DNA of 32,000 bases from Actinobacteria bacterium UBA2279. Its GTDB lineage: Bacteria; Actinomycetota; Coriobacteriia; Anaerosomatales; Anaerosomataceae. The position numbers and the translations under genes are program-made. The DNA lies in NCBI GenBank assembly GCA_002347365.1, contig DDWT01000033.1, forward strand, positions 1 through 32,000, given 5' to 3'. Position 1 is the first letter of the stretch. Every line of letters begins with the position of its first letter. This document shows, piece after piece, positions 12,488 to 23,431 of this stretch. The notes beneath the pieces are model-generated. The model did no database searches and was not told where the DNA came from. It worked only from the letters and a program-made list of their open reading frames with translations.

Positions 12488-12525
12488 ACGGGGCCGGACG
12501 TCCGATAAGGGCGCTCCGGCCCCGT
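12488..12525 (+). terminator. Hairpin with an 11-bp perfect stem downstream of rpsA
   Basis: ACGGGGCCGGA (12488..12498) pairs with TCCGGCCCCGT (12515..12525) around a 16-nt loop. The T tract is weak (GTGTCATCTCC), so it may be only a partial terminator upstream of coaE. Confidence 0.5.
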
Positions 12526-12547
12526 GTCATCTCCAGGGAGGAACCCC

Positions 12548-13159
12548 ATGTACGTGCTCGCCGTCACCGGTGGCATCGGATCGGGCAAGTCGACCGCCAC
12601 GCGCATCTTTGAGGATCGCGGCGCGATCGTCCTCGATCTCGACCGCATCGCCAAGGAGCTGCTCGAACCAAGCATGCCGCTGTTGGGCCGTATCACCGAC
12701 GCGTTCGGGGACTCGGTAGTGGGCCCCGATGGCCGCATCGACCCGGCTGCGCTTGCAGATGCCGCGTTCGCTTCCGATGAGGCAACGCGCACGCTGGATG
12801 CGATCGTGCACCCGGCCGTCTACACAGTGCTCACAGGGATTCTTGACGCGCTTGCCGTGCAGGCTGAGCCGCCCCGGTTCGTAGTCCTCGACGTGCCGCT
12901 GCTCGCCGAGGCACCGATCTTCCTTGACCTCGTCGACGCGGTGCTGGTCATCTCGGCAAGAGAGGATGCGCGCGTCGAACGTTGTCTGGCAAACGGCATG
13001 ACTGAAGCCGACGTCCACCGTCGCATCGATCGTCAGGTCGGTGATGCCGAGCGCCGGGACATCGCCGACTACGTGATCGACAACGACGCCAGCCTCGCGG
13101 AATTCAAGCACGATATCGTGCGCTTCTGGGATCTGGAGGTGGCGCCGCGTGCCTCGTGA
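12548..13159 (+). CDS. coaE: Dephospho-CoA kinase
   Basis: I trimmed to the ATG at 12548 (MYVLAVTGGIGSGKST P-loop), after GGGAGGAA. Typical CoaE layout follows (VLDLDRIAKELL, IVHPAV, VVLDVPLL). Confidence 0.9.
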   Translation: MYVLAVTGGIGSGKSTATRIFEDRGAIVLDLDRIAKELLEPSMPLLGRITDAFGDSVVGPDGRIDPAALADAAFASDEATRTLDAIVHPAVYTVLTGILDALAVQAEPPRFVVLDVPLLAEAPIFLDLVDAVLVISAREDARVERCLANGMTEADVHRRIDRQVGDAERRDIADYVIDNDASLAEFKHDIVRFWDLEVAPRAS

Positions 13160-13736
13160 GCACGCATTTGCCCCGCACAGGCTGATACTCATCGCCGTCA
13201 TCCTCGTGCTGGCTGTTGCTGCGCTCCTTGCGCTGCGTGGACCCGCGTGGTGGCAGCGGGTGTACTACCCGCTGCGATACGAGACCGCCATCGCTGATGC
13301 ATCGGGCCGCTACGGCGTGGACCCGTACCTGGTGGCTGCGCTCATCAATGCCGAGTCGGGGTTCGACGCTGCTGAAGTGTCTTCCGCCGGTGCGGTCGGC
13401 CTGATGCAGCTCCTCCCTTCGACCGCGAGCGAGCTTGCGCTGGAGTTGGGTGTGGAAGACGAGATCGACGCCGAGCGACTGAAGGACCCGGAGCTCAACA
13501 TCAGCCTTGGCACGCGCCACCTGGCCCAACTGTTACAGCGCTACGATCACACACGTACTGCGCTTGCTGCGTACAACGCGGGGGGCGGCAACGTGGACAG
13601 ATGGCTTGAGCGGAGCGGGGAGACCAGTGTTGGTTCGAGCCTGCCCTTTCCCGAGACCGAAGCGTATGTCGAACGGGTACTCTCGGAAGTGGAGCGATAC
13701 CGAGAGCTGTATCCGACCGCATTCGAGAGCAGGTGA
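13149..13736 (+). CDS. Membrane-anchored lytic transglycosylase (SLT domain)
   Basis: The GTG start overlaps the coaE end by 11 nt. An N-terminal TM anchor (LILIAVILVLAVAALLAL) is present. SLT catalytic region is present (ALINAESGFDAAEVSSAGAVGLMQLLPSTA, AAYNAGGGNV). Confidence 0.85.
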   Translation: MPREHAFAPHRLILIAVILVLAVAALLALRGPAWWQRVYYPLRYETAIADASGRYGVDPYLVAALINAESGFDAAEVSSAGAVGLMQLLPSTASELALELGVEDEIDAERLKDPELNISLGTRHLAQLLQRYDHTRTALAAYNAGGGNVDRWLERSGETSVGSSLPFPETEAYVERVLSEVERYRELYPTAFESR

Positions 13737-13739
13737 CCG

Positions 13740-15806
13740 GTGGCCGATCTGCGTGTCGTATCCGAGTTCGAGCCTGCGGGTGACCAACCCAACGCGATAG
13801 AGCAGTTGGCTGAGGGCGTCCTGTCCGGCATGCGGGACCAGACACTTCTGGGTGTGACCGGCTCGGGCAAGACGTTCACGATGGCGAAGCTCATCGAGCG
13901 CGTCCAGAGGCCAACGCTCGTGATGGCGCCGAACAAGACGTTGGCGGCCCAACTGGCTTCCGAGCTCAAAGACTTCCTGCCGGACAACGCGGTCGTCTAC
14001 TTCGTGTCGTACTACGACTACTACCAGCCTGAGGCGTACGTTCCAACGACCGACACGTTCATCGAAAAGGACTCCTCGATCAATGCCGAAGTCGAGAAGC
14101 TGCGGCATGCCGCTACGGCCGCACTGCTCTCTCGTCGCGATGTCGTCGTGGTCGCCAGTGTGAGCTGCATCTACGGGATCGGTTCGCCCGAGGACTATGC
14201 CGGACTCGCCGCGTTTCTGACAGTGGGCGAGACCTACGACCGTGACAAGCTCATCCGCGACCTGATCGAGATCCAGTACGACCGCAACGACTATGACCTC
14301 ACGCGCGGTACGTTCCGCGTTCGCGGGGATGTCCTCGACGTGTTCCCGCCGTATGCGGACCATCCCATTCGGGTTGAGTTCTTTGGTGACCAGATCGATT
14401 CGATCGCCGAGTTCGACCAAGTCACCGGCGAAGTGACGGTGACGTTCAAGTGGCTGCCCGTGTGGCCTGCCACCCACTACGTGACGGCACCCGCCAAGCT
14501 CGCGGTCGCGCTCAAGACGATTCGTGCCGAGCTACAGGAGCGCCTTGCTCAGTTCAGAGCGGAAGGCAGACTACTCGAGGCGCAGCGCCTGGAGATGCGT
14601 ACGAGCTACGACCTCGAGATGCTTGAGACGATGGGGTTCTGCTCGGGAATCGAGAACTACTCGCGTCACCTTGACGGGCGTGCTGCGGGCGAGCCGTCCA
14701 ACACCCTCATCGATTACTTCCCGGACGACTTCTTGTGCATCATCGATGAGTGCCACGTGACCGTGCCGCAGATCCGCGGCATGCACGCGGGCGACCGCTC
14801 CCGGAAGGTGACCCTGGTCGAACACGGGTTCCGGTTGCCAAGCGCCCTGGACAACCGACCGCTCAACTTTGATGAGTTCCGGCAGCGCGTGCATCAGACC
14901 GTGTTCGTCTCGGCGACGCCGAGTGAGTGGGAACGCGGCATCAGCGAGCAGATCGTCGAGCAGATCATCCGGCCCACCGGCCTGGTGGACCCACAGATTC
15001 TAGTGCGGCCGACGAAAGGCCAGGTGGACGACCTGATCGCTGAGATCCAAGACCGCGTGGAACGCAACGAACGCGTCCTGGTCACGACGCTCACCAAGAA
15101 GATGGCCGAGGACCTCACGGAGTACTTCTTCGAGCACGGCATCAAGGTCCGCTACCTGCACAGCGACGTTGCCACCCTTGAACGCATCGAGGTGTTGCGG
15201 GATCTGCGGTCGGGGACGATCGATGTCGTCGTGGGCATCAACCTGCTCCGCGAAGGTCTCGACCTCCCAGAAGTCTCTCTCGTGGCGATTCTCGACGCCG
15301 ATAAGGAGGGCTTCCTCCGCGACTTCCGTAGTCTCATCCAGACGATCGGACGTGCCGCACGCAACGTCTCCGGGCAGGTCATCCTCTACGCTGACAGGAT
15401 GACCGACTCCATGCGGATGGCGATCGACGAGACCGACCGTCGCCGGGCGATCCAGGTGGCGTACAACACCGAGCACGGAATCGAGCCTCAGACGATCCGA
15501 AAGGCGATCCACGACATCGCACAGTACGTGCGCGAGACGGACGCCGGTCTTGAGCCGAGCGTGCACGTGGCCGAGGAGCTCGCCAAGATGCCGCGCAGTG
15601 AACTCGCACTCATCATCTCGGCGATGGAAGAGGACATGCACGGCGCCGCCGAAGCGCTCGATTTCGAGACCGCTGCGCGCATGCGCGACCAGGTCGTCAA
15701 GCTGAAGGCAGAGGTGGAGTCGACTACCACCGATGAGGTGCTGTCGCGGCTCAAGCAGGGCGCGCGCAAGGGCTCCGCTCACGGAGTGAAGAAGCGCCGG
15801 CGCTAG
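13740..15806 (+). CDS. uvrB: Excinuclease ABC subunit B
   Basis: 688-aa ORF with a GTG start 3 nt after the slt stop. Motifs seen: [10 protein letters not shown] Walker [48 protein letters not shown], and a C-terminal UVR motif ([11 protein letters not shown]). Confidence 0.95.
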
Positions 15807-15827
15807 TCCGCGACCGGGAGACGCGTG

Positions 15828-16493
15828 CTAGTCGGCGATGGCGACCATCTCGACGCGCGTTGCGACGCCATTCTCGACAGTCACCTTCCACATGTCGGTC
15901 ATGGCGCCAGGAAGCGCGTCCCAATCGCCATCCGCCCACTCCCTGAGCTGTTCCGCGTTCGCCGCAACCATCGACAGGGCCTCCACGCCGCCTGTCGCAT
16001 ACCGGATCACGGCTGTGTTCGCCAAGGGGACTCCGATGACTCCCGGGTCCTCATTGACATACAGGATGCCATTGGACGGCACTGCCAAGCCGTGGTCGTT
16101 CGCGTATTTCGTGGCCTCTGTACCGGAGTAGATCTGGAACAGATCGAGCGCCAGGTTGTAGGTTCCGGCCGATGCCGATACTGACGTCACGTACGCATAG
16201 CTGACGTAGCTCGACGCGGTGGTTTCCGGCGGTCCGGCGGGCACGACGGGGGCATCCTCGACATCTTCGGTGGGCTCGTTGAGCGCCGGCTCCTCCGCCG
16301 GCGGCGTGATACTCGCCTCGAGCGCATCGAGACGGTTCTCAGTCTCCGCCAGGCGATCTGCAGCGGCGCGTGCCGAGAAGTACCACGCCGCTCCCATTCC
16401 GATGAGCGCGACCGCAAGCACCGCGGCGACTATGGCCGGGATCGGCACCGACCGTTTACGGGTTGCGGCAATGGCGGGGTCCTGCTCGGTCAT
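15828..16493 (-). CDS. Single-pass membrane protein, paralogue 1 of 3 (TM + coiled coil + acidic/Pro linker + unknown C-terminal domain)
   Basis: 221-aa ORF with SD GAGGAGA. It has a TM helix (IPAIVAAVLAVALIGMGAAWYF) and a coiled-coil stretch (ADRLAETENRLDALEASI). The C-terminal domain is similar to the two upstream genes (YNLALDLFQIYSGTEATKYA..PSNGILYVNED..WKVTVENGVATRVE). Confidence 0.65.
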   Translation of the reverse strand: MTEQDPAIAATRKRSVPIPAIVAAVLAVALIGMGAAWYFSARAAADRLAETENRLDALEASITPPAEEPALNEPTEDVEDAPVVPAGPPETTASSYVSYAYVTSVSASAGTYNLALDLFQIYSGTEATKYANDHGLAVPSNGILYVNEDPGVIGVPLANTAVIRYATGGVEALSMVAANAEQLREWADGDWDALPGAMTDMWKVTVENGVATRVEMVAIAD

Positions 16494-16538
16494 GATGTCT
16501 CCTCTACAGCCTGCGGGATGGAATTGGCGGCGTGCGTT

Positions 16539-17201
16539 CTACGGAACCCAGAAGTGCTCGATGTTGGTGATCGTGCCACCGACGATGGTGATGTAGTAGA
16601 TCGCTCCCCGGTAGTAGCTTTGGGCGCCCCAGCGATTGACGCGGAAGTCGTCGAACGTGATCGTGACGTCGCCCATGATGTACCCATCCATGGGATCTGC
16701 CGCGGGCGAGTCGTGCATCAGCACGGCGCATGTGGCGGAGACGGGGAACGTGCGAAGCTTCGGGTTGTCGTTGACGACGTAGTAGTCGTTGGGCACCGGT
16801 GTCTCGTCTCCGTGCGCCGCCGCTGCGGCGTTCGCCTCGGCTCCGCCGAGCACCTGCACGTAGTCGATGACGATCTGGTAGCCCCCACCTGATGCGGAGT
16901 CGATGGACTTTATGATCCCCGGGAAACGGCCGTCATCCGCGGTCGACGGCGAGCTTGTCGGCGCCGGCTCCTCGGGTCCGGAGGACTCGACTTCTTCCAT
17001 CGGCTCGGAGGTGGGCGACTCAGCCGGCGCGCTTGATTCGAGGCTGGACAGCGCGTCTTCTGCCTCGGCCAGCTTGCTCTCGGCCTCGTCCAGCGAGGGT
17101 TTGACGATGAGATACCCCACACCAACGCCTGCAGCAAGGACCACGAGTGCGGCGACTACCAGCACGGCGATGGTCTTCGGGCTCTTCAGATCGAAAGACA
17201 T
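16539..17201 (-). CDS. Single-pass membrane protein, paralogue 2 of 3
   Basis: 220-aa ORF with SD GGAAGGAGA. It has a TM helix (IAVLVVAALVVLAAGVGVGYLIV) and a coiled-coil stretch (LDEAESKLAEAEDALSSLES). The C-terminal domain reads YQIVIDYVQVLGGAEANAAA..PVPNDYYVVNDN..YYITIVGGTITNIE. It shares the 13-nt start context AGGAGACATCATG with paralogue 1. Confidence 0.65.
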   Translation of the reverse strand: MSFDLKSPKTIAVLVVAALVVLAAGVGVGYLIVKPSLDEAESKLAEAEDALSSLESSAPAESPTSEPMEEVESSGPEEPAPTSSPSTADDGRFPGIIKSIDSASGGGYQIVIDYVQVLGGAEANAAAAAHGDETPVPNDYYVVNDNPKLRTFPVSATCAVLMHDSPAADPMDGYIMGDVTITFDDFRVNRWGAQSYYRGAIYYITIVGGTITNIEHFWVP

Positions 17202-17215
17202 GATGTCTCCTTCCG

Positions 17216-17917
17216 CTACGGCTCGTAGTAGGGGTCGCGAGGCTGTTCTTCGATAGCGACCAGCCTGCCTTCCTCGACCGTGAACCAGTAGTGCCTGCCG
17301 AGAAGATGCGAGCTGTCCTCGTCCATGTAGATGGCGTCATAGAACTGACCGAAGGAGACGTGCTGTGGCGTCATCGAGGGGCCGTAGAAGCCGATCGCAG
17401 GCATGACAGGGTACGTGTACATCGTGATGTCTACGGCTCCCGCTCCGCCGGGTGAGATCTTGAACGACGTGATGGCGACGCCTTCGTCGCGAACGTACCA
17501 GTAGTCCGGATCGTAGTAGTCCTGGTCGCCCTGGCTCGTCAGATAGGTGAGTGCTGCATTCCCGGTGAGGAAGTCGGCGGTGTCGATATCAACCCAGAGG
17601 TCTTGCCACGTCCCGCCGCTCTCATCCCGGATGCCGCGTAGAGCTCCGAACACGTGATCCGCCGGTTCGGACTCGGACGGGGGAGTGGGCTTCTTCTCAG
17701 TGGGTGTCGCCGGAACGACCGTGGGAGCGTCTTCGGTGGCGGGTGTCGCATCGCGAGACGCTGTCAGGGTCGTCTCGGAAAGCTTCGGCTCGATCTCCGG
17801 CGAGTTGCCACCGCCGGTAAGAAGGACCACACCCGTGACGATTCCAGCGACCACCACGACTGCGGAGATGCCGATCGCAAGCTGGATCTTCGTGTCCAGA
17901 CCCCTCCACCACTCCAT
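17216..17917 (-). CDS. Single-pass membrane protein, paralogue 3 of 3 (more divergent)
   Basis: I trimmed to the ATG at 17917 (MEWWRGLDTKIQLAIGISAVVVVAGIVTGVVLL), after GGGGGGAA. A Pro/Thr/Glu linker follows. The C-terminal domain reads WQDLWVDIDTADFLTGNAALTYL..YWYVRDE..YWFTVEEGRLVAIEE. Confidence 0.6.
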   Translation of the reverse strand: MEWWRGLDTKIQLAIGISAVVVVAGIVTGVVLLTGGGNSPEIEPKLSETTLTASRDATPATEDAPTVVPATPTEKKPTPPSESEPADHVFGALRGIRDESGGTWQDLWVDIDTADFLTGNAALTYLTSQGDQDYYDPDYWYVRDEGVAITSFKISPGGAGAVDITMYTYPVMPAIGFYGPSMTPQHVSFGQFYDAIYMDEDSSHLLGRHYWFTVEEGRLVAIEEQPRDPYYEP

Positions 17918-18061
17918 GGTTCCCCCCTGACACAGACGCTCGAGTTTGTGGCTCGCACTTACATAGTACTTCCCACTATCGCCGTGTTCCACAGAGGTAC
18001 TCCTCTGAAGGGCGTTGTACACTTATGGGGGTGATTGTGAACGCGGAAGGAGCGAGGACTC

Positions 18062-18994
18062 GTGGCGACGGTAGTGGAGTGCGCGCAGCTCACCAAGTAC
18101 TACGGTAAGACACGGGGCGTCGAGGATTTGACGCTGAGCGTGCCTGAGGGCATGGTCTTCGGCTTTTTGGGTCCCAACGGCGCGGGGAAGACGACCACGA
18201 TCCGATGTCTTCTCGGCATGCTGAAGCCCACAGCCGGGGAGTCCCGCCTGTTCGGTGAGCACGTGACACTCGACGGCGCGAACCTGCGTCGGAGGATCGG
18301 CTACGTGCCCGGCGAGGTCAAAGCCTACGACAAGGAGACCGGGCGCTGGCACATCGACTACGTCTCCCAGCTGCGCGGTGGCAAGGGCGCGCTCACCGAT
18401 GAGCTCCTCCAGCGAATGGAGTTCGATCCGAGTCGCCGGGTCAAGGAGCTCTCCAAGGGCAACAAGCAGAAGCTTGCACTCATCCTCGGCCTCATGCACG
18501 ATCCGGAGCTGCTCATCCTCGACGAGCCCACGTCCGGGCTCGATCCGCTCAACCAGGAGACGGTGTTTTCCATCATCGAGGAGCGTGTCGCGGGCGGGGC
18601 GGCCGTGTTCCTATCGAGTCACATCCTCTCCGAGGTCGAACGTATCTGCGAGCGCGTCGGTATCATCCGCAGGGGCCATCTGGTTGCCGAGGAGGACGTG
18701 AGGTGTCTGCTCGACAAGCGTCTGCGGGAGCTCAACGTGACATTCACCGATCCGGTCGATGCTGCGTTTCTGGCTGATGTCGACGGTATGAGCCGGATCA
18801 CGCTCACGGGGCCGAACACCATCAACGCTCGTGTGAAGGGTGACCATCTCGACGATCTGATCAAGCGGCTTGCCACCAAGCCCGTGCGGGACCTGAGTAT
18901 CGAGCACGCGAGCCTGGAAGAGGTTTTCATGGAGTTCTACCGCGACGAGGAGAACAGCGCGGAAGAGACACCGGCCGAAGGGGGCGCGGAGTGA
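18062..18994 (+). CDS. ABC transporter ATP-binding protein (ABC-2 exporter type)
   Basis: The GTG start lies 9 nt after AAGGAG. Motifs seen: Walker A GPNGAGKTTT, Q-loop, signature LSKGNKQKL, Walker B LLILDEPTSGLD, H-loop SSHIL. Confidence 0.9.
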   Translation: MATVVECAQLTKYYGKTRGVEDLTLSVPEGMVFGFLGPNGAGKTTTIRCLLGMLKPTAGESRLFGEHVTLDGANLRRRIGYVPGEVKAYDKETGRWHIDYVSQLRGGKGALTDELLQRMEFDPSRRVKELSKGNKQKLALILGLMHDPELLILDEPTSGLDPLNQETVFSIIEERVAGGAAVFLSSHILSEVERICERVGIIRRGHLVAEEDVRCLLDKRLRELNVTFTDPVDAAFLADVDGMSRITLTGPNTINARVKGDHLDDLIKRLATKPVRDLSIEHASLEEVFMEFYRDEENSAEETPAEGGAE

Positions 18995-19791
18995 TGAGCT
19001 GGACGATCCTTCGCGCCACACTTCAGCAGCGTCGCACGGCGCTCGCCTGGTACATCGGCAGCCTTGTCGCGTACTCCTGGATGATGGTCTGGTTCTATCC
19101 CAAGATCGGTGGCGGCGAGTATGCGCAGCTCATCGACAGCATGCCTCCCGAGGTCATGCAGATCATGGGCGGTGGCGATATCTCGTTCGCGTCGTTGGGT
19201 GGGTTCTTCCAGACCGAATACCTCGGTCTCATGTGGATGCTGATCGTGGCGTCAGCGGTACTCATCTTCACGAGTCGCGCGTTCGCCGGGGAGATCGCTG
19301 ATGGGACGATGGAACTCGTGCTGTCGCAACCGGTCTCTCGCGTCAAGCTGGCGATCACGCGCGTCGTCGCTCTGGTTGCGTACGTGTTGCTGCTTGCGGC
19401 GGCGACATTCGTGCCCATCCAGGTGTTCGGCCCCACCTACGACATCAACCTGAGCGCCAAGGTCTTCTGGCTGCTCATGGCATTGGGAACGTTGTTCATG
19501 CTCGCGGTCGGCGGCATCGGCATGCTGGCGAGTTCGGCGTTCCGCAGCGGCGGGAAGGCCTCAAGCATCGCTGCAGGCGTCCTCGTGGTCATGTGGGTGA
19601 GCGATCTCATCTCGAACTTCTCGGAAGTGGCCGACTTCTTCGGCCCGGTGAACCTTATCAGCGAATGGCAGCCGGGCAAGATCATCAACGACGGCACCGC
19701 GCCGGGAGAGGTGTGGTGGCTCTACGGGATCGTCGCAGTCGTCTCACTCGTTGCATGCGTGTTCGTGTTCTCGCGCAGAGATGTCGCCTAG
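18991..19791 (+). CDS. ABC-2 family transporter permease
   Basis: The ATG overlaps the ATPase stop as ATGA. The 266-aa protein has about six hydrophobic helices and no soluble domain. Confidence 0.75.
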   Translation: MMSWTILRATLQQRRTALAWYIGSLVAYSWMMVWFYPKIGGGEYAQLIDSMPPEVMQIMGGGDISFASLGGFFQTEYLGLMWMLIVASAVLIFTSRAFAGEIADGTMELVLSQPVSRVKLAITRVVALVAYVLLLAAATFVPIQVFGPTYDINLSAKVFWLLMALGTLFMLAVGGIGMLASSAFRSGGKASSIAAGVLVVMWVSDLISNFSEVADFFGPVNLISEWQPGKIINDGTAPGEVWWLYGIVAVVSLVACVFVFSRRDVA

Positions 19792-19802
19792 GGGTGTCAG
19801 GC

Positions 19803-20639
19803 GTGAAGCTGTCACTACGTTCGAAGATCGTGCTGTCGAACGGGGTCGAGATGCCCCGGTTCGGGCTGGGCACGTACAAGTCCGCAGAGGGCGCCGAGGT
19901 ACAGGAGTCGGTGCTCTCTGCGCTCGAGATCGGCTATCGCAGCATCGATACGGCATCGCTGTACGGCAACGAGGAAGGGATAGGAAAGGCGCTGCATGGT
20001 AGTGGTGTGTCCCGCTCAGACGTGTTCCTGACGTCGAAAGTGTGGAACGAGGAGCAAGGTTATGAGGGTACACTCGCCGCACTCGATCGGAGTCTGACGC
20101 GCCTGGGCACAGACTACGTCGACCTCTACCTTATCCATTGGCCTATCCGACGCACGCTTGAGCCCACATGGCGTGCGATGGAACACGCCCTGATCTCAGG
20201 CAAGACGCGGGCGATCGGCGTGTGCAACTTCTTGCAGCACCATCTGGAGGCGTTGCTTGCGGTATCGACTGTGGCACCGATGGTGGATCAGTACGAGTAC
20301 CACCCGAGGCTACAGCAGCCATCGCTCAAGGGTTTCTGCGACGCACACGACATTGTTGTCGAGGCGTGGGCGCCACTCATGCGCGGCAGGGTGAACGACG
20401 TCAGGACACTGCGGGAGATCGCTCACGAGCATGGCGCCACACCGGCACAGGTCTCCCTTCGTTGGCTGTTGCAGAAGGGCGCGATCGTCATACCAAAGTC
20501 CGTGCATGCCGAACGGATCCGCGAGAACGCCGGCGCGCTCGCCTTCGAGCTGAGTGATGCCGAGATGGCGCGCATCGACGCGCTCGACGCGGGGACTCGC
20601 CTCGGGCGAAACCCCGACACGCTGGCATGGGAGGCCTAG
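19803..20639 (+). CDS. Aldo/keto reductase (2,5-diketo-D-gluconate reductase-like)
   Basis: I trimmed track ORF 19593..20639 to the GTG at 19803 (VKLSLRSKIVLSNGVEMPRFGLGTYK); the upstream part overlaps the permease gene. AKR motifs are present (GYRSIDTASLYGNEE, LFLTSKVWN, YVDLYLIHWP, IGVCNF, IPKS..ERIREN). Confidence 0.9.
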   Translation: MKLSLRSKIVLSNGVEMPRFGLGTYKSAEGAEVQESVLSALEIGYRSIDTASLYGNEEGIGKALHGSGVSRSDVFLTSKVWNEEQGYEGTLAALDRSLTRLGTDYVDLYLIHWPIRRTLEPTWRAMEHALISGKTRAIGVCNFLQHHLEALLAVSTVAPMVDQYEYHPRLQQPSLKGFCDAHDIVVEAWAPLMRGRVNDVRTLREIAHEHGATPAQVSLRWLLQKGAIVIPKSVHAERIRENAGALAFELSDAEMARIDALDAGTRLGRNPDTLAWEA

Positions 20640-20657
20640 ACGCGAGGTCGCGTGTCG

Positions 20658-20680
20658 GTATACTCAACGTATGAGTAAAC
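20658..20680. promoter_or_regulatory. Imperfect 9-5-9 inverted repeat (candidate ArsR/SmtB operator) overlapping a TATACT -10 box and the repressor start codon
   Basis: GTATACTCA-acgta-TGAGTAAAC spans 20658..20680, with 8/9 arm matches and a perfect core TACTCA/TGAGTA. TATACT lies at 20659..20664. TAGACG lies at 20637..20642 with a 16-nt spacer. The ATG at 20671 starts 7 nt after the -10 hexamer. Confidence 0.45.
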
Positions 20681-21060
20681 GTTCAGATGAAGCTGCAGCC
20701 TGCGGGCCCGAGTGCGACGCGATGATCGTCGATGGCGCCGCCGTTGCCGCTGCATCGGAAGCGCTTCCCGATGATATCTGCGTCGCGGCCCTGGCGGCCG
20801 TGTTCTCGGCGCTGGGCGATCCGACGCGCGTCCGCATAGCGCTTGCTCTGCTCGGCAGAGAGCTGTGCGTATGTGACCTCGCCGCTCTCGCGGGCATCTC
20901 TCAGTCTGGCGTAAGTCACCAATTACGGGTGCTGCGCGACCTGCGTGTGGTTGCGTATCGTCGAGATGGCAAGCGTGCGGTGTACCGGCTGATCGATGAC
21001 CATGTCCGAGAGGTGCTCGAGCTGGGACTCGCACACGCGGCGGAGTCCGAGACGGGATGA
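20671..21060 (+). CDS. ArsR/SmtB-family metal-sensing repressor (CadC-like)
   Basis: I trimmed to the ATG at 20671 ([15 protein letters not shown]...). It has a winged HTH ([42 protein letters not shown]). Both metal-site signatures are present: N-terminal CxxxC plus CVC, and DxH-x10-H-x2-E ([17 protein letters not shown]). Confidence 0.9.
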
Positions 21061-21064
21061 GTGC

Positions 21065-23431
21065 ATGACGGAGCACGTGACACGCGAATTCGATCTGTCG
21101 GGCTTGCTTGCGACTCCGTACTACTGCCTGGGGTGCGCGGGTCGCCTGTGCGGTCGTCTGGAAGGCATCGAGGGCGTCGAAGGCACTGACTGCGATATCG
21201 CGGGCGGCTCGGTGAGAGTCACGTTCGACCCGCACAGGGTTTCGGAAGACGCTATTGAGCGTGCGCTGATCGAGCTTGCCCGAGAGGCGTCCGAGTCGGT
21301 CAGCCACGCCGTGTACACCCTCACCGGGCTTGACTGTCCGGATTGCGCTCGCACGGTCGACCGCTCGGTCGGCTACGTGGATGGTGTCCTCTCGGCGTCG
21401 CTGAACTTCGCGAGCGCTACCCTTCTGGTCGAATTCGATCCCGCCCACGATCCCCGGGACGCGATCGTGGCACTCGTCCGTGGCATGGACTACGGGATCG
21501 CACCCGTGGGAGAGCCTGCAGGGACTCAGGAGCCGCTCGGCTGGTGGGCGGAGCACCGCGCGAGCATGCTTGTGGTCGCGTCCGGCACGTTGCTGGCGTT
21601 CGGCTGGGCCCTGGGACACACGGGGCTGCCGGAGTACGTGTCGGTAGCGCTGTTGTCGGGGTCGATACTGACCGGTGCGATCCAGCCGGCTCGTCGGGCT
21701 ATGGGCGCGCTCCGTGCCCGCACGCTGGACATGAATGTGCTCATGACCCTCGCCGTCGCGGGTGCGGTGGTTTTAGGTGACTTCACCGAGGCGGCCACGA
21801 TCTTCTTCCTGTTCGCCATCGGCGGATGGCTCGAGGCACGGTCGCTTGCCAGGACGAGACGCAGCATCAAAGATCTCATGGCACTCGCTCCTGACCGCGC
21901 ACGCGTGCGCCGGAGCGGGAGCGAGGCGCTCGTCGAGGTGCGAGATGTGGCCGTCGGAGAGACCGTCATCGTACGGCCGGGTGAGCGGATCCCGCTCGAC
22001 GGCACCGTGGTGCGCGGCGCATCTGCAGTGGATGAATCTCCGGTCACCGGCGAGCCGGTACCCGCCGAGAAGGGCGTCGGAGATGATGTGTTCGCCGGGA
22101 CACTGAGCACGAGCGGCCTGATCGAGTTCACGACCACGGCGACCGCGACCAGCTCGACGCTTGCGCGAGTGGTCGAACTCGTCGAAGAGGCGCAGGCAAG
22201 GAAGGCCCCCGTCCAGCAGCTCGTCGACCGCTTCACGCGCGTCTACACGCCCGCCGTCATCGCGCTTGCGGTGTTCCTGGCGATCGTGCCACCAGGCCTG
22301 GGCGCGCTCGGTGTGGCCGGTCTGGGCGACTGGAGCACGTGGTTCTACCGGGCGCTTGTTCTCCTCGTGGTGAGCTGCCCCTGCGCGCTCGTGATCTCCA
22401 CACCGGTGGCGGTCGTCTCGGCGATCACCGCGGCGACCAAGGCTGGCGTCCTCGTCAAAGGCGGCGCCGTGCTCGAAAACGCCGCGCGCGTGGGAGCGAT
22501 CGCGTTCGACAAGACCGGGACGCTCACCGTGGGCAAGCCGGTCGTGACGGAGATCGTCGCGTTCGGCGATCTGGAGCCAGGCGAGCTTCTCCGGACAGCC
22601 GCATCGCTCGAGATCGGCTCGGGACATCCTCTCGCCCGCGCAGTGGTACAAGCCGCCGGCGATGACGCGCGGCTGAGTGATCTCGATCGATTCGCCGAGG
22701 TACCCGGTCAGGGTACGCGCGGTACCATCGGCGGTGTAGAGCATCTGGTGGGCAGCCCGTTTTTCGTCGAGTCCGAGACTACGCCTTTCGGTGGCGACGT
22801 CACCGAAGCGCAGCTCAGACTCGAGGGTGCCGGCATGAGCGTGTTGGCGGTTGCGCGCGACGGTGTCGTTCTCGGGCTGATCGGGCTGGCGGATGCCGTG
22901 CGCCCGCAGGCGAGACAGGCACTCGCCCGGCTGCGACGGGAAGGTATCACGCAGCTGATCATGCTCACCGGCGACAACGAACTCACGGCTTCGGCTATCG
23001 CTGCGGATGTCGGCGTGAGCGAATACCGCGCCCGACTACTGCCCCAGGACAAGATGGAGGAGGTGGAGGCCCTTGCGGCCCGGTACAGGATCGTCGCGAT
23101 GGTGGGGGATGGCATCAACGATGCACCGGCCCTGGCGGTGGCGGGTATCGGCATTGCGATGGGCGCTGCGGGAAGCGATACGGCGCTGGAGACCGCTGAT
23201 GTCGCGCTGATGTCAGACGACCTTCACGCGCTTCCGGGCCTGTTCCGTCTCGGCAGACGGACGTTGCGCGTGATCCGGCAGAACGTGTGGTTCTCCGTAG
23301 TGGTGAAAGCGGTGGTTCTGGTTGCAGCAGTGTTCGGCTACGCGCCTTTGTGGCTGGCGGTGTTCGCTGACACGGGTGTCTCGCTGTTGGTGATCGTCAA
23401 CGGCCTGCGTCTGTTGCGGGTGAAGGTATAG
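21065..23431 (+). CDS. Heavy-metal translocating P1B-type ATPase (Zn/Cd/Pb class by motifs)
   Basis: I trimmed to the ATG at 21065, 4 nt after the repressor stop. It has two N-terminal HMA-like domains (CLGC, CPDC). Motifs seen: [39 protein letters not shown], and a TM8-like [17 protein letters not shown]. Confidence 0.92.

Follow-up and report, generated by a model that had tools for sequence, protein, structure and literature searches.

Three Tandem Paralogs with an Uncatalogued, Probably Extracytoplasmic Domain in an Anaerosomataceae Genome

Introduction

What role is played by a row of three small membrane proteins whose shared C-terminal domain resembles no catalogued family, and does the exporter encoded beside them offer a clue to it? 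The question is posed by a 32,000-nucleotide stretch of DNA from Actinobacteria bacterium UBA2279 (Coriobacteriia; Anaerosomatales; Anaerosomataceae), comprising positions 1 to 32,000 of contig DDWT01000033.1 in assembly GCA_002347365.1 and referred to here as the window. Three consecutive minus-strand genes, designated P1, P2, and P3, lie in it between uvrB and the genes of an ATP-binding cassette (ABC) exporter of the ABC-2 type. The C-terminal domain of their products represents an uncatalogued, probable ectodomain family inside a familiar architectural class. The genes are the following:

15828..16493, minus strand: P1 gene, 221 amino acids, open reading frame (ORF) call, member of the rare P1 subfamily
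16539..17201, minus strand: P2 gene, 220 amino acids, ORF call, canonical family member
17216..17917, minus strand: P3 gene, 233 amino acids from an ATG, member of the conserved P3 subfamily

The ORFs, lengths, and spacing given in an initial annotation of the window, with gaps of 14 nt between P3 and P2 and 45 nt between P2 and P1, were all reproduced, and the three genes are read as one operon-like array. These are the only 3 copies of the family in the genome (2.25 Mb, 36 contigs).

Shared Architecture of the Three Proteins

All three proteins follow a common layout, in which a short N-terminal tail leads into one hydrophobic helix, an acidic linker, and finally the C-terminal domain. Lysine or arginine residues precede the hydrophobic segment in each protein. 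The linkers extend over 33-49 residues, of which 59-73% are Pro, Ser, Thr, or Glu, and carry a net negative charge, while the C-terminal domains comprise 125-147 amino acids with a Tyr plus Trp content of 8-11.6%. The initial annotation had recognized this architecture correctly, with its single hydrophobic segment, Pro/Ser/Thr/Glu linker, and Tyr/Trp-rich domain in every member. The stretch that it termed a coiled coil in P1 and P2 is a charged helical segment of approximately 20 residues, too short to be called as such. Anchors and domains map as follows:

16386..16442, minus strand: P1 anchor helix, residues 18-36, Kyte-Doolittle 19-residue maximum 2.41, preceded by RKR
17115..17171, minus strand: P2 anchor helix, residues 11-29, Kyte-Doolittle 19-residue maximum 2.79
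17819..17875, minus strand: P3 anchor helix, residues 15-33, Kyte-Doolittle 19-residue maximum 2.71
15831..16205, minus strand: P1 C-terminal domain, residues 97-221, aligned by hhalign to the family profile over residues 97-216 (E 1.1e-15)
16542..16931, minus strand: P2 C-terminal domain, residues 91-220, AlphaFold2 model of residues 88-220
17219..17659, minus strand: P3 C-terminal domain, residues 87-233, aligned by hhalign over residues 88-225 (E 2e-15)

An Uncatalogued Domain Family

That the C-terminal domain could be matched to no known family was stated at the outset, and a broad set of searches bears this out. In Pfam none of the three proteins scored above the cut-off (best E 0.034, in the transmembrane/linker region), and in NCBIfam the best match, to GspM and again in the transmembrane/linker region, reached E 0.0035 and 17 bits against a cut-off of 60. 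PADLOC and PHROGs gave no significant match in the domain, Pfam detected nothing in the C-terminal domain of 44 homologs, and neither PF03793 (PASTA) nor PF14032 was listed in a full Pfam scan at E<=10. Queries of PDB sequences, whether by a single protein or by a profile, likewise produced no match in the domain, the profile matches being confined to signal-peptide/linker positions 1-88, as with the lipoproteins LpqN and LpqE. A full-text literature search with three motif strings found no paper.

Structure prediction with AlphaFold2 was confident for the domains of both P2 (pLDDT 90.2, pTM 0.82) and P3 (pLDDT 89.8, pTM 0.85), and the two models have the same order of strands and helices, a predicted fold that is compact and mixed alpha/beta. 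Foldseek comparison of two models with the PDB and of one with BFVD returned nothing significant (best E 0.08-0.4, TM score <=0.38). Both models begin with a beta-beta-beta-alpha-beta-beta order resembling the barrel of oligonucleotide/oligosaccharide-binding (OB) fold binders such as CusF, CcmE, and the BOF family, but they contain extra strands and helices, and the family does not conserve the metal or heme ligands of CusF and CcmE. The OB-like order of elements is a weak lead from the models. Recurring matches to SSB (TM score <=0.38, E>=0.08, probability <=0.28) were rejected as evidence for an OB-fold.

The family is large. A word-indexed search with P2 found 108 clusters, every one labeled "hypothetical" and lacking any Pfam domain in its C-terminal part. 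A profile search of 1.84 billion representatives, with clusters counted at 50% identity, recovered 4,266 clusters at E<=1e-3, of which 2,413 are retained at E<=1e-10 and 387 at E<=1e-30. Membership was defined by two profiles (A1 and A3). Matches in collections holding one genome per species are almost all metagenome-assembled genomes of uncultured Actinomycetota, distributed over Actinomycetes, Acidimicrobiia, Thermoleophilia-type lineages, and Coriobacteriia; in an even sample of the phylum, the family occurs in 64 of 401 genomes and 45 of 252 genera. Within the class of the window it is found in 72 genomes of the window's order, as opposed to 1 of about 108 elsewhere.

The family consensus reads ..DLAxFLTGxEANxAAAxHGDETPVPNDYYIVNDNPKLRT....YWxTxxxGxVxxIEEQYLP. 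Its invariant columns are Asp, Ala, and Gly, and the nearly invariant ones comprise Gly, Ala, Asp, Glu, Pro, Asn, Tyr, Val, Leu, and Arg; the alignment holds no conserved nucleophile and no invariant Ser, Cys, His, or Lys. The motif blocks previously picked out by eye in the three proteins coincide with conserved columns of this alignment. A canonical loop motif, G-D-E-x-P-x-P-N-x-x-Y-x-V-N-D-N-P-x-L-R, is defined by columns conserved at 90% or more. P2 has it in complete form (HGDETPVPNDYYVVNDNPKLRT). It is replaced in P1 by HGLAVPSNGILYVNEDPGVIG, and P3 has QGDQDYYDPDYWYVRDEGVAIT where it would be expected, the P3 subfamily having a signature of its own (GIRDESGG..W, GFYGP, and IEEQPRDPYYEP). 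A vicinal Cys-Cys pair is found in the domain of 97 of 251 canonical homologs and is absent from P1, P2, and P3 of the window and from the P1 and P3 subfamilies.

Three homologs (P0129; L043, 6861-8516; L060, 6957-8543) have the domain as the outer part of a Ser/Thr kinase, in the order kinase, transmembrane helix, linker, domain. The ectodomain in L047 is near-identical, and its upstream frame encodes no kinase, which may reflect a frameshift or a separate gene. In other homologs the domain follows a cytoplasmic zinc ribbon (PF13240), a transmembrane helix, and a low-complexity linker.

Paralogy and Age of the Array Genes

Common descent of the three proteins, proposed from their resemblance by eye, is supported by significant similarity in BLASTP and hhalign. 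BLASTP joins P1 with P2 (2e-10) and P2 with P3 (3e-8), partly through anchor and linker, and gives no significant match between P1 and P3. A profile built independently from 44 distant homologs, with the window sequences excluded, aligns by hhalign with the whole C-terminal domain of P1 and of P3 at probabilities of 98.5-98.6% (E 1e-15 and 2e-15, respectively), and the family hidden Markov model (HMM) retrieves P2 at E 2e-48, P1 at E 7e-18, and P3 at E 7e-15 in hmmsearch. P1, P2, and P3 are accordingly paralogs of one family, with pairwise protein identities of 26-29%.

Subfamily HMMs and a maximum-likelihood tree show that the divergence is old. The P3 clade (support 100/100) has a long stem (1.92) and is internally well conserved, with 39 clusters reaching down to 42% identity, while the P1 clade (support 100/96) contains 5 other clusters from two taxonomic families of the order. 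Against their own subfamily HMMs, P1 scores 346 bits and P3 329 bits. P1 and P3 thus belong to separate, old, conserved subfamilies, and P2 is the canonical form. Recent tandem duplication was considered and rejected, since the three genes have no DNA repeats between them, are 26-29% identical as proteins, and belong to separately rooted old clades. Ratios of nonsynonymous to synonymous substitution (dN/dS, NG86) against three relatives are 0.14-0.23 for P2 and 0.17-0.24 for P3, with 0.05-0.07 for uvrB, values that are approximate because dS is near 1. These ratios place P2 and P3 under purifying selection.

Across the order, the number of copies ranges from 1 to 4, usually in tandem, and most genomes have a single canonical copy. 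Where a P3 gene was found, it stood beside a canonical gene in 12 of 12 cases. In the window's genus the other four genomes each have two copies, a P3 and a P2, which suggests that P1 is an old gene kept by the window's genome and a few others. The canonical gene precedes P3 in most genera, whereas in the window's genus P3 comes first, as seen when window positions 16539-17917 are compared with L096, L101, L102, L094, and L108. Arrays of four genes, in the order of two canonical-type genes, P3, and P1, are present in L095 (5509-8347) and L098 (G071:C7, about 116600-119330). Unlinked second copies occur in G003, G009, G131, and G039; those at G003:C1:783150-783767 and G009:C5:568-1185, from a sister genus, are very divergent (E ~1e-10 to 1e-12) and distant from the uvrB locus. 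In the tree, the P2 clade of the window's genus is joined (support 100/96) by the genes at L005 (7965-8618) and P0017 (L009), which lack the uvrB context and have RecQ, ADSL, PALP, and patatin genes as neighbors. There are hints here, from the tree, of horizontal transfer of the canonical copy into or out of the window's lineage.

Membrane Topology and Proposed Role

Topology was judged by hydropathy, charge, and the anchors of homologs. No lipobox of the form [LVI][ASTVI][GAS]C is present in the window's proteins, which have no Cys in their N-terminal regions. Among canonical homologs, 207 of 251 have an N-terminal hydrophobic segment, and in 37 of 251 a lipobox-like motif replaces the anchor helix. 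Because of this replacement, and because the domain lies outside the membrane on Ser/Thr kinases, the best reading is that the N-terminus is inside and the domain probably extracytoplasmic, the location that had already been proposed for it in the initial annotation. The vicinal Cys pair in the domain of 97 of 251 canonical homologs and the basic residues ahead of each anchor helix were likewise counted toward an outside location.

The chances are about even, in our estimation, that the domain is a tethered extracytoplasmic binding or sensor module. Each protein would be held in the cytoplasmic membrane by its single N-terminal helix, with the N-terminus inside, and the disordered, acidic Pro/Ser/Thr/Glu linker would present the compact alpha/beta domain on the outer face. 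P2 retains the conserved polar loop (HGDETPVPNDYY-VNDNP-KLR) and would be the likely ligand-binding member. P1 and P3 keep the fold but have exchanged the polar loop for conserved signatures of their own, and would most likely pair with the canonical protein as subunits of a mixed complex, or be variants of different specificity. Binding is preferred to catalysis because the domain serves as a kinase ectodomain and because the polar loop is without a nucleophile; the conserved positions, which are Gly, Pro, and Ala together with Asp, Glu, Asn, and Arg, also favor a binding or sensor role. The idea of partners draws on the P3 clade being long-stemmed yet conserved, on the constant position of P3 genes beside a canonical gene, and on the presence of the P1 clade in two families. 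A mixed complex of the paralogs is possible, with co-location as its basis, and is held with less confidence than the general statement. Stronger still would be the claim that this is a new fold used in Actinomycetota as an extracellular ligand sensor, both free-standing and on Hanks-type kinases, and diversified here into an obligate complex of P2 with P3 and P1; in that full form it is doubtful.

Several points weigh against a tethered binding or sensor module. The anchor helix might be a cleaved signal peptide. Kinase fusions are rare, with about 3 seen, and the genomic context, which varies from lineage to lineage, points to no function consistently. Co-location is the sole ground for a hetero-oligomer, and since most genomes of the order have the single canonical copy, a partner would be dispensable for the basic function. 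Foldseek is weak on small beta-rich domains, and a known fold may have been missed.

The closest parallels include the sensors of Hanks-type Ser/Thr kinases. PknH_C-like (PF14032) and PASTA (PF03793) ectodomains occur on actinobacterial kinases and as free lipoproteins, and members of the present family are likewise transmembrane-tethered, lipoproteins, or the outer part of a kinase, but they differ in having no Pfam sequence match and no Foldseek match to a solved structure. Several homologs also share the layout of Gram-positive proteins with a zinc ribbon, a transmembrane helix, and a linker, for example those of DUF4352 architecture, in that they contain PF13240; the ectodomain here differs in being without a Pfam match, and the three proteins of the window have no zinc ribbon. 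With thousands of clusters and presence in about one sixth of the sampled Actinomycetota genomes, almost all of them uncultured, a definition of the domain would annotate many envelope proteins now called "hypothetical." It would likewise give a name to the extracellular portion of some Ser/Thr kinases, and with it a lead to their signals, and structure determination and ligand screening are made practical by the confident models.

Genomic Neighborhood and Competing Explanations

The array is transcribed divergently from the exporter genes across 144 bp, and the coordinates previously given for this arrangement were reproduced:

17918..18061, no strand: divergent intergenic region from P3 to the ABC ATPase gene, 144 bp, with the ATPase GTG at 18062
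18062-18994, plus strand: DrrA-like ABC ATPase, lineage-local neighbor, outside the system
18991-19791, plus strand: ABC2_membrane_2 permease, lineage-local neighbor; the ATPase/permease pair occupies 18062..19791

For the ATPase and the permease, no assignment more specific than DrrA-like and ABC2_membrane_2 was obtained. Close relatives keep the entire block, in which polA, S1, coaE, SLT, and uvrB are followed by the paralogs and then by ABC, ABC-2, AKR, arsR, and P-type ATPase genes. A survey of 40 genomes of the order, from about 36 genera, places a family gene beside uvrB in 37, convergent to it where the flanks are visible, and in most genomes the family gene is also divergent from arsR and a P1B ATPase. 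The order-wide block (window 12524-23431; L097-L136) has coaE, SLT, and uvrB on a common strand, a family gene in convergent orientation to uvrB, and then divergent arsR and a Zn/Cd/Pb-type P1B ATPase gene, with ABC-2, AKR, MFS, and HMA genes as variable insertions between the family gene and arsR.

The functional link to the exporter suggested in the initial annotation would make the array proteins accessory or substrate-handling parts of the adjacent ABC-2 system, under a shared divergent control region. The head-to-head position across 144 bp in the window and its relatives recalls DrrAB-type exporters with accessory membrane proteins, and within the window's taxonomic family the adjacency outlasts some rearrangements: in L095 the array stands beside ABC-2 and not beside uvrB, having a gene for a 1,362-amino-acid FG-GAP protein instead, and in L088, L093, and L099 the ABC-2 genes are on the other side of the array, in convergent orientation. 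Across the order and the phylum, however, the co-occurrence fails. The ABC-2 pair is beside a family gene in 6 of the 40 genomes, 5 of them in the window's taxonomic family and the sixth with the pair between uvrB and the family gene in convergent orientation, and outside the order a homolog of the permease was found within 8 kb at none of some 70 loci. Each component also occurs alone. Seven genomes have the family and no permease homolog at E<=1e-10; conversely, a permease of 61-62% identity persists in G099 and G133, from which the family is missing. The two components are 212 kb apart in the complete genome G003, and L077 and L094 have a pair of paralogs without ABC-2. Conserved synteny with the exporter, named beforehand as a test of the link, breaks down except within one taxonomic family. 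Because the adjacency is rare in the order and nil outside it, and because each component is found alone, the exporter is best seen, from these gene orders, as a lineage-local insertion into a conserved block and not as a functional partner. As an obligate link the association is largely refuted, and a role in the exporter is very improbable; a weak residual signal of adjacency persists in the window's taxonomic family, where L095 keeps ABC-2 despite the loss of uvrB as a neighbor. The exporter is unsuitable for annotating the array genes by association.

Three other explanations compete with the tethered binding or sensor module. One is extracytoplasmic metal handling together with the ArsR/SmtB repressor and the Zn/Cd/Pb-type P1B ATPase, with metal bound after export by the acidic loop and the Cys-Cys pair. 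This would fit the divergent position of the gene relative to arsR and the P-type ATPase in most genomes of the order, the HMA and ATPase genes that follow the ABC-2 genes in L095 and L096, and a conserved loop rich in Asp, Glu, Asn, and His, but the window's three proteins have no Cys pair, no metallochaperone family or fold was matched in Pfam, NCBIfam, or Foldseek, and a P-type ATPase lies within 8 kb at only 1 of about 72 loci outside the order. Its near absence there makes the adjacency look inherited as a block (coaE-SLT-uvrB, family gene, arsR-ATPase), and metal handling seems improbable as the role of the array. A link to the metal ATPase outside the order was rejected on the same count of 1 in about 72 loci. 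An extracytoplasmic enzyme of a new family is hardly a better prospect: the polar motif (HGDE...NDNP...R) is strongly conserved, yet Asp, Ala, and Gly are invariant where Ser, Cys, His, and Lys are not, the motif has been lost from P1 and P3 while constraint is retained, and use as a kinase ectodomain suits binding better than catalysis.

An envelope protein with a structural or wall-associated part to play, whether as a spacer, an anchor binding peptidoglycan or another polymer, or an inhibitor of wall hydrolases, is less easily dismissed, though still unlikely. The linker, being long and flexible, would set the domain within the wall layer, the domain's richness in aromatic residues is reminiscent of carbohydrate-binding surfaces, and a lytic transglycosylase gene stands two genes away throughout the order. 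This transglycosylase gene (SLT) is, however, behind uvrB on the other strand and absent from the loci outside the order, and the domain shows no likeness to the LysM, PASTA, SH3b, PG_binding, MliC/PliC, or Ivy families or folds.

Local Sequence Signals and Other Observations

Signals at the starts of the array genes include:

17921..17927, minus strand: GGGGGGA Shine-Dalgarno sequence of P3, 3 nt 5' of the P3 ATG
16491..16503, minus strand: Shine-Dalgarno/start context of P1, the 13-mer AGGAGACATCATG
17199..17211, minus strand: Shine-Dalgarno/start context of P2, the identical 13-mer AGGAGACATCATG, 14 nt after the P3 stop

Strong Shine-Dalgarno sequences precede the array genes and were counted toward their being real, constrained genes. 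The 233-amino-acid start of P3 is favored because GGGGGGA lies 3 nt upstream and because the M-x-W N-terminus aligns with P3 orthologs; starts further upstream would give 268 amino acids for the longest ORF (GTG) and 258 in the database gene call. An exact search confirmed the shared 13-nt context of P1 and P2, with AGGAGACATCATG occurring exactly 2 times against 0.04 expected. Its interpretation as the trace of a tandem duplication does not hold, given identities of 26-29%, old clades, no DNA-level repeat between the three genes, and a 13-mer private to this genome, the P2 orthologs reading ggagaccccATG and gaggagctgccATG at the same place. The 13-mer is more reasonably ascribed, on sequence grounds, to Shine-Dalgarno constraint with chance or a small local conversion than to a relic of duplication.

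Between 15500 and 18400, neither Rfam matches nor sigma-70-like sites were found, the 144-bp intergenic region included, and no terminator-like site was seen on the minus strand between the three genes. The stop codons of uvrB (plus strand) and P1 (minus strand) are 21 nt apart (15806-15828), which leaves too little space for each gene to have its own terminator, and the interval yielded no terminator-like site.

Clustering of ORFs within 4 kb at about 85 loci revealed no universal neighbor gene, only lineage-specific ones, in an analysis made noisy by the many spurious ORFs of high-GC genomes. At two loci outside the Coriobacteriia (L014, 9796-11628; L015, 9189-10268), a DrrA-like ATPase is encoded 0.7-1.3 kb downstream of the family gene; it matches the window's ATPase at E ~1e-40 and is accompanied by no detectable homolog of the window's permease. 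The lineage-specific neighbors include MarR/MFS, methyltransferase, TusA/DrsE, and Ni-SOD genes in one group, and ADSL, PALP, and patatin genes in another.

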